Below, one piece after another: positions 750 through 1,041 of a stretch of 19,652 nt of DNA. The stretch lies in IMG/VR virus record IMGVR_UViG_3300027836_000006. The stretch is one strand, 5' to 3'. The position numbers and the translations under genes are program-made. The notes beneath the pieces were generated by a model. That model was given only the letters and a program-made list of their open reading frames with translations. It was not told where the DNA came from and made no database searches. Numbering within the stretch: the first letter of the stretch is position 1; the number at the start of each line of letters is the position of its first letter. Origin of the DNA: a virus (lineage: Duplodnaviria > Heunggongvirae > Uroviricota > Caudoviricetes).

Positions 750-1041
750 TTATTTTGCAAAGAACGCATACAAACCAAAATACTTTTTAGGAGATAGAGT
801 GTATGGAAAATTCCATAGTATTCCGTTTATCGGTACTGTTGGTAATGATCGTGTTGTCAGTCTTGACGGCCCGGAAATAACAATACACTTGGATTTGCCA
901 ATTAAAGTTGACAACGAATACAAATCGTTTATAATTGTCAAACACAAAGATATAAAGCGTTTGAAGTCAATGGATGACGAGGAGCCTCTAAAACTCCCAG
1001 TAGCGGGTTCGATTCCCGCCAAACGCACCAAACAAAAATAA
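733..1041 (+). CDS. hypothetical protein; 3' end overlaps a tRNA gene
   Basis: 102-aa ORF overlapping upstream stop; no recognised family. Confidence 0.6.
   Translation: MASLSDYFAKNAYKPKYFLGDRVYGKFHSIPFIGTVGNDRVVSLDGPEITIHLDLPIKVDNEYKSFIIVKHKDIKRLKSMDDEEPLKLPVAGSIPAKRTKQK
908..935 (+). promoter_or_regulatory. intragenic sigma70 promoter upstream of tRNA-CUA
   Basis: TTGACA-N16-TATAAT, 21 nt before the tRNA. Confidence 0.7.
957..1030 (+). tRNA. amber suppressor tRNA (CUA)
   Basis: Acceptor gcgtttg/caaacgc, D stem gtca/tgac, loop ctCTAaa, T arm gcggg-ttcgatt-cccgc, ACCA end. Confidence 0.88.

Follow-up and report, generated by a model that had tools for sequence, protein, structure and literature searches.

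A phage tRNA with anticodon CUA nested in an open reading frame, and a candidate target gene gated by a single amber codon

Autoregulation of prfB relies on a UGA codon, RF2 and a +1 frameshift and involves no dedicated tRNA, and classical attenuators sense the tRNAs of sense codons. The hallmarks of tRNA-Pyl are a 6-bp anticodon stem, a 3-nt variable loop, a single base between the acceptor and D stems, and the lack of G18G19 and of a TTC T loop. In jumbo phages the discoverers of tRNA-Sup(CUA) found no target gene for it (Yoshikawa et al. 2018, PMC5852040). Here we analyse a 19,652-nt stretch of DNA (the window), which is part of a large phage with an array of 36 tRNAs further on and which carries, well before that array, a tRNA of this kind nested in a short ORF (Table 1). 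From the sequence comparisons described below, we consider it likely that this tRNA is a working amber suppressor that acts as a private key and does not change the code.

Table 1. Features of the locus, with positions in the window
Positions	Strand	Feature	Basis
733-1041	+	Host ORF: probable SH3/Tudor-like beta barrel at about residues 13-75; residues 76-102 are the tRNA read as protein	Structure model, homolog lengths, codon-position test
908-935	+	Sigma70-type promoter written in host-ORF codons	12/12 match; -35/-10 co-occurrence
957-1030	+	tRNA, anticodon CUA, XacN1/GAP32-type phage family	ARAGORN, Rfam, BLASTN, compensatory changes in 12/21 pairs
957-3150	+	Block that three 90-93% identical relatives lack; its left edge is the first base of the tRNA, and the target lies within it	BLASTN
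1554-2360	+	268-aa protein, zinc ribbon at the C-terminus; inherited together with the tRNA	Pfam PF13240
2417-2421	+	Shine-Dalgarno (SD) of the gated gene, 7 nt before its ATG at 2429	Spacing tracks ATG
2429-3001	+	Amber-gated gene, 190 aa if read through; predicted phage-type N-terminal beta domain and weakly ACT/RRM-like C-terminal domain	
2435-2437	+	Gate: in-frame TAG at codon 3 of the gated gene	Homolog comparison

The tRNA and the frame that holds it

Both ARAGORN and Rfam call the tRNA, with its anticodon CTA at 988-990, an RF00005 score of 44.6 bits against a gathering score of 29, and a cloverleaf fold with a z of -3.1. The G1-C72 pair, A73, encoded CCA and normal T loop (TTC) that an earlier note had read from the letters are each present, together with the D-loop GG and a C31.A39 mismatch, and the next tRNA begins at 7479, which bears out the claimed distance of more than 6 kb to the array. 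The core is non-canonical, with A8 replacing U8, a D loop of 5 nt and a linker of only 2 nt between the D and anticodon arms; the A8 and the short D loop could weaken the activity of the tRNA. ARAGORN labels it tRNA-Pyl, with which it shares the CUA anticodon and a short D loop. That identity, which the earlier note had also rejected, is ruled out by G18G19, the TTC T loop, a 5-nt variable loop, two bases between the acceptor and D stems, and an anticodon stem that is not of 6 bp; no pylS or pylBCD ORF is evident within the window. An initiator tRNA is likewise ruled out by G1-C72 in place of C1.A72 and by the missing three G-C pairs of the anticodon stem.

BLASTN matched the tRNA to the tRNA-Sup genes of XacN1, Xoo-sp13 and GAP32, and it carries the anticodon arm GAGCCTCTAAAACTC with unpaired 31.39 by which the XacN1/GAP32 type is recognised. 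A pattern scan for the family returned 69 viral loci. Among 106 distinct family sequences the majority states are G1-C72 (102), C2-G71 (97), G3-C70 (89), A73 (93) and CCA (102), all of which the window tRNA matches. The stems covary, with two-sided changes in 12 of 21 pairs, in excess of shuffled and slid controls, and 86.8% of alignment cells are paired in the family cloverleaf, above all slid controls. Taken together, these comparisons place the tRNA in a widespread phage family that includes XacN1 and GAP32. The suspicion that C31-A39 might make the tRNA inactive does not hold up: position 31.39 is non-Watson-Crick in 100 of the 106 sequences and C.A in 83, and pair 30-40 is always formed. 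This retention across the family indicates that the mismatch is a maintained feature and not a sign of decay. Loss of U8 might have served to keep an in-frame UAG out of tRNA positions 8-10, but A8 is common in free-standing copies too, which weakens this idea. In several phage genes (L020, L030, L109, L242, L261), the U8-A9-G10 of a following tRNA serves as the TAG stop. In phage Phosso, a tRNA annotated as undetermined (L429:2379-2454) is called CUA by ARAGORN; it is flanked by genes for CysRS and SerRS, and a fused homolog of the N-terminal domain of the target described below follows 5 kb further on.

Lys or Gln, proposed earlier as the residue charged on this tRNA, are both plausible. U35 with A73 favours Lys, and Gln-inserting tRNA-Asn suppressors required a weakened 1-72 pair (PMC9976931); pair 31-39 tunes LysRS versus GlnRS, with C31-G39 favouring Gln, C.A not being among the variants tested (PMC1483225). 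We would therefore expect a host synthetase to charge the tRNA with Lys with roughly even probability, Gln less probably and some other residue less probably still, so that Lys is the likelier of the two candidates. Homologs of the target are uninformative on this point, since the ungated ones begin at the TAG site, and the Q that database proteins show there most likely stems from gene calling with code 15.

The promoter inside the host ORF, a TTGACA-N16-TATAAT with a 12/12 match, is where the earlier note had placed it and is one of six perfect sites within the window; about 0.02 such promoters are expected by chance per window, and 2e-5 within 40 nt of a given site. The -10 box occurs in 47 of the 49 host-ORF homologs that have the -35 box vs 16 of the 74 that lack it, and this co-occurrence indicates that the promoter is selected as DNA. 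Its description as the tRNA's own promoter thus stands as to a selected internal promoter and falls as to specificity, because it is found, in two spacings, in 15/16 tRNA-bearing and also in 32/107 tRNA-less host-ORF homologs. We regard it, on these counts, as an internal promoter that recurs in the host gene family and is put to use by the tRNA. Another perfect promoter, likewise with a 16-nt spacer, lies at 5301-5328, inside ORF 5060-5452 and upstream of a PfkB-like gene.

The host ORF likely encodes a small barrel of the SH3/Tudor/KOW-like class; its model gives many tied structural matches at Z 6-7 to generic SH3-like folds (for 1vie, Z 7.0, rmsd 2.4, 55 aligned). The tRNA does overlap this ORF on the same strand, as the earlier note had it, but not just in the last codons: it lies wholly inside and spans 25 codons. 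Nor do homologs of the ORF end before 957, an outcome that note had thought worth checking; they typically end a few codons beyond the equivalent point, most of the 131 distinct homologs retrieved using the first 75 residues only having 77-84 aa and no tRNA. The tail appears in about 90 of the best 120 database matches to the host protein, a count skewed by the length of the query. In ten embedded tRNAs the variable sites are spread 10/12/12 over the codon positions and include compensatory pairs, from which we infer that the tail is translated tRNA; without codon-position bias, a conserved protein tail is rejected, and we treat the tail as a by-product of the tRNA. The conserved-looking end common to about 90 database proteins is thus an annotation trap. 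Decayed tRNA remnants are read as protein tails at the SH3-like ORF ends of L142, L197, L233, L160 and L164 and in P0119, and tRNA sequence, as these ORFs suggest, can persist as a coding extension. The overlap is probably a landing site: the tRNA sits under the ORF-internal promoter and would have taken the place of the last few codons and the stop of the host ORF.

It is possible, though rather unlikely, that the overlap is itself functional: by excising the tRNA, RNase P would leave a host-gene mRNA with no stop, and the SH3-like protein made from it would be tmRNA-tagged and degraded for as long as trans-translation is not saturated. There is a precedent in ArfA (PMC8012679), and phage tmRNA genes are often nearby. 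Junctions at which the host ORF is continued across the tRNA fall into at least four registers (-1, +18, +21 and +48), and the ORF frame is open in 15 of 16 embedded sequences, as against 15/60 (25%) and 19/60 (32%) for the same two frames in free-standing copies; the excess is suggestive of selection and rests on four or five independent events. Against such control, most host-gene homologs have no tRNA and an ordinary stop, the independent junctions number only four or five, and the tail is under no protein-level constraint. Moreover, the tRNA directly follows a retained host-ORF stop in L101 and L229, and in L162 (347-349) and L165 (517-519) the host ORF stops at a TAG inside the D arm of the tRNA, where read-through would yield a long form of the host protein. 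Control of this ArfA-like kind would be compatible with the tRNA acting mainly as a suppressor.

A probable amber-gated gene inherited with the tRNA

The earlier note had offered no target for the tRNA. A scan for an SD, an ATG, a few codons, a stop and then a long frame returned a candidate 1.4 kb downstream of the tRNA, which reads ATG-AAA-TAG followed by 187 codons. The same early-stop scan found homologs in G002, G003, G004 and G007, all with TAG. The codon is present in 44/44 rows of the first set of homologs and, among homologs whose flanks resemble those in the window, in 62/62 at the same site; these share 61-93% nucleotide identity and vary at synonymous sites. Across all homologs with a stop at the gate, TAG is the stop in 108/108, and no UAA- or UGA-gated version was seen among the loci examined. 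In RHph_I1_18, a Rhizobium phage in culture, a gated homolog that the annotation lacks stands directly before the tRNA-CUA; annotated versions of the target routinely begin at a wrong internal start. These comparisons suggest that the 190-aa protein is probably made only while tRNA-CUA overrides the stop. We found no description of a single-codon amber gate in the published literature searched, the coverage of which is incomplete. Upstream of the gated gene, at 2353-2410, lie a weak promoter-like site (3/6 at -35) and a G+C-rich hairpin.

The tRNA and the gated gene are inherited together. BLASTN similarity to the three tRNA-less relatives L007, L008 and L159, which match the window at 90-93% identity over its left part, stops at 956 and resumes at 3147-3161. 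The same three are 97-98% identical to the window at 733-852 and 56-61% at 900-935, where they have no -35 box and where tRNA-bearing loci are 75-94% identical. It appears from these alignments that the promoter, the tRNA and the downstream block move together. Among 44 loci retrieved by the gated gene alone, 42 have a tRNA-CUA within 10 kb. Loci retrieved by the SH3 gene alone hold both tRNA and gated gene in 8 cases, neither in 36 and one without the other in 4 (Fisher p 4e-6, uncorrected for kinship); as the loci are related, such counts overstate independence. The 268-aa zinc-ribbon gene is found in 9/11 tRNA-bearing vs 1/37 tRNA-less loci. The near-complete genome G001 has the tRNA-CUA (98311-98387, L101) but no gated homolog that we could find, and its Pth2-like gene has no TAG. 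An HNH homing endonuclease gene on the minus strand (4541-5113) is absent from L007 and L008.

Could the TAG simply dampen expression, through basal read-through by the host, while the tRNA has another job, e.g. as decoy for an anticodon nuclease? UAG does leak weakly without suppressors, and one complete genome has the tRNA and no target found. A dampener could use TGA or TAA just as well, yet the site is invariably TAG; the gated gene is tightly linked to a CUA tRNA; and the tRNA retains its acceptor end, T arm and CCA, as one that works in translation would. We therefore regard this explanation as improbable.

Still less probable is genome-wide recoding of TAG (code 15) with an ordinary recoding tRNA. 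TAG makes up 0-7% of stops in seven related genomes or large fragments, six of which have one tRNA-CUA each, and such rarity has been proposed to precede recoding (Borges et al., bioRxiv 10.1101/2021.08.26.457843). Reading TAG through, on the other hand, brings no gain in coding density in any of the seven (difference at most 0.015), conserved TAG is limited to one N-terminal site, and no other convincing in-frame TAG was seen among the called genes of the window. Tandem backup stops after TAG are not enriched in tRNA-carrying genomes. We conclude from these measures that the related genomes use the standard code, and for them code 15 is already largely refuted. The sole TAG stop among the listed window genes, at 13074-13079, is directly followed by TAA, and read-through would add one residue. 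That the TAG is a start codon read by a CUA initiator tRNA is hardly credible: ungated homologs do have an ATG at its position, but the SD keeps 6-8 nt from the upstream ATG and 13-21 nt from the TAG, and thus follows the ATG, and the tRNA, as described, has G1-C72 and lacks the three G-C pairs of initiators.

Leaders, Pth2-like genes and the product of the gate

A gated gene is not the only layout in which suppression at an amber codon could act. Divergent target homologs begin with ATG at the TAG position, and the 13 homologs without an in-frame TAG all lie behind an amber leader or an amber-gated Pth2-like gene: ten have a leader 101-128 nt upstream, one has it at the head of the operon, and two follow a gated Pth2-like gene. 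In ten distinct ungated homologs the leader consists of ATG, one to four codons and TAG, and its read-through frame runs toward or into a hairpin that is terminator-like or blocks the SD. The background of the leader motif is 9%, and L439, used as a prospective test, showed the pattern. We infer that read-through means ON in every layout, gate or leader, and the in-frame gate may have arisen by collapse of a leader onto its gene.

TAG also occurs at codons 3-5 in 8 of 12 Pth2-like genes near tRNAs of the family, that of GAP32 included; the name is tentative, as divergent genes reach only E 0.006-0.01 to PTH2 and a PF01981 search missed them. The GAP32 region (L004:811-1730) holds a Pth2-like gene with TAG at codon 4 and, behind it, an HD-type gene interrupted by an in-frame TAG, opposite which one homolog has Lys; the annotation shows separate genes. 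Minigenes made of a start, a few codons and a stop load Pth through peptidyl-tRNA drop-off (PMC8012679), with which, by analogy, a Pth2 link of the gated system would fit.

The model of the 190-aa product has a pLDDT of 84.6. Its best PDB match covers residues 94-170 (Z 5.0, rmsd 3.4, 74 aligned) and makes this part weakly ACT/RRM-like, a common arrangement; the N-terminal beta domain matched only uncharacterised viral proteins, and searches of PDB, Atlas, Pfam, PHROG and NCBIfam gave no significant assignment. Both stand-alone and fused forms of the N-terminal domain occur, two genes away from a gene annotated as Pth2-type in Phosso and from the homolog of that gene in Atu_ph07. These neighbours point to a possible role of the target in translation rescue, and the output of the gated system probably belongs to a translation-rescue or translation-stress response.

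Elsewhere in the window, Rfam but not ARAGORN calls tRNAs at 8206-8290 and 11232-11313, which are long-armed and by eye Ser UGA and Tyr GUA. The tRNA array holds a sub-threshold match to YrlA (Y RNA-like) at 9857-9975, and after it, at 16476-17885, comes a DUF2828/DUF7788 RNA-binding gene, possibly Ro60-like.

A proposed one-codon switch and its known counterparts

Cumulatively, the tRNA gene, the selected promoter, the conserved gate, the co-inheritance and the standard code of the relatives argue for a suppressor-based switch, and read-through of one codon is, in our judgement, probably the best reading of the locus. The host sigma70 polymerase would transcribe the tRNA from about 942, RNase P would trim the transcript and a host synthetase would charge it. 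Charged tRNA-CUA would then compete with RF1 at codon 3 of the gated gene, with either release of a Met-Lys dipeptide or synthesis of the 190-aa protein as the outcome, so that expression of the gated gene would report the ratio of charged, intact suppressor to RF1. Relatives would read the same signal via an amber leader or an amber-gated Pth2-like gene, and this wiring makes a rescue or stress response the probable output.

A wider proposal, which we advance tentatively and hold at somewhat below even, is that of a mobile phage sensor of stop-codon read-through. The suppressor would report RF1 activity or its own integrity, the latter e.g. under a host defence that cuts tRNAs, and would switch on translation-rescue genes via a single amber codon, in a gate or a leader attenuator; in this lineage the tRNA would also be processed from coding mRNA, maybe with trans-translation control of the SH3-like protein. 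The amber gate itself would be a natural counterpart of the switch engineered in synthetic biology, and possibly a step on the way to full recoding of TAG.

In prfB and in leader attenuation, too, an early in-frame stop or a translated leader ties expression to a competition in decoding. The difference lies in the components, prfB depending on UGA, RF2 and frameshifting with no tRNA of its own, and attenuators on sense-codon tRNAs. In TAG-recoded phages a phage suppressor tRNA likewise licenses genes with in-frame stops, but there many late and lysis genes are recoded (Borges et al.), whereas here a single N-terminal codon, in gene or leader, would be concerned in genomes of standard code. New here are the nesting of the tRNA in an ORF, the promoter within codons, the block edge at the first base of the tRNA, and the alternation of gate and leader inside one gene family. 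The nearest relatives are the tRNA-Sup(CUA) genes of XacN1, Xoo-sp13 and GAP32, which share the anticodon arm and the family and likewise belong to standard-code jumbo phages (PMC5852040). Those copies are free-standing and have U8, whereas the window copy is nested and comes with a conserved candidate target, which the suppressor tRNAs of standard-code jumbo phages thereby gain, with cultured examples of the gated system in RHph_I1_18 and GAP32.
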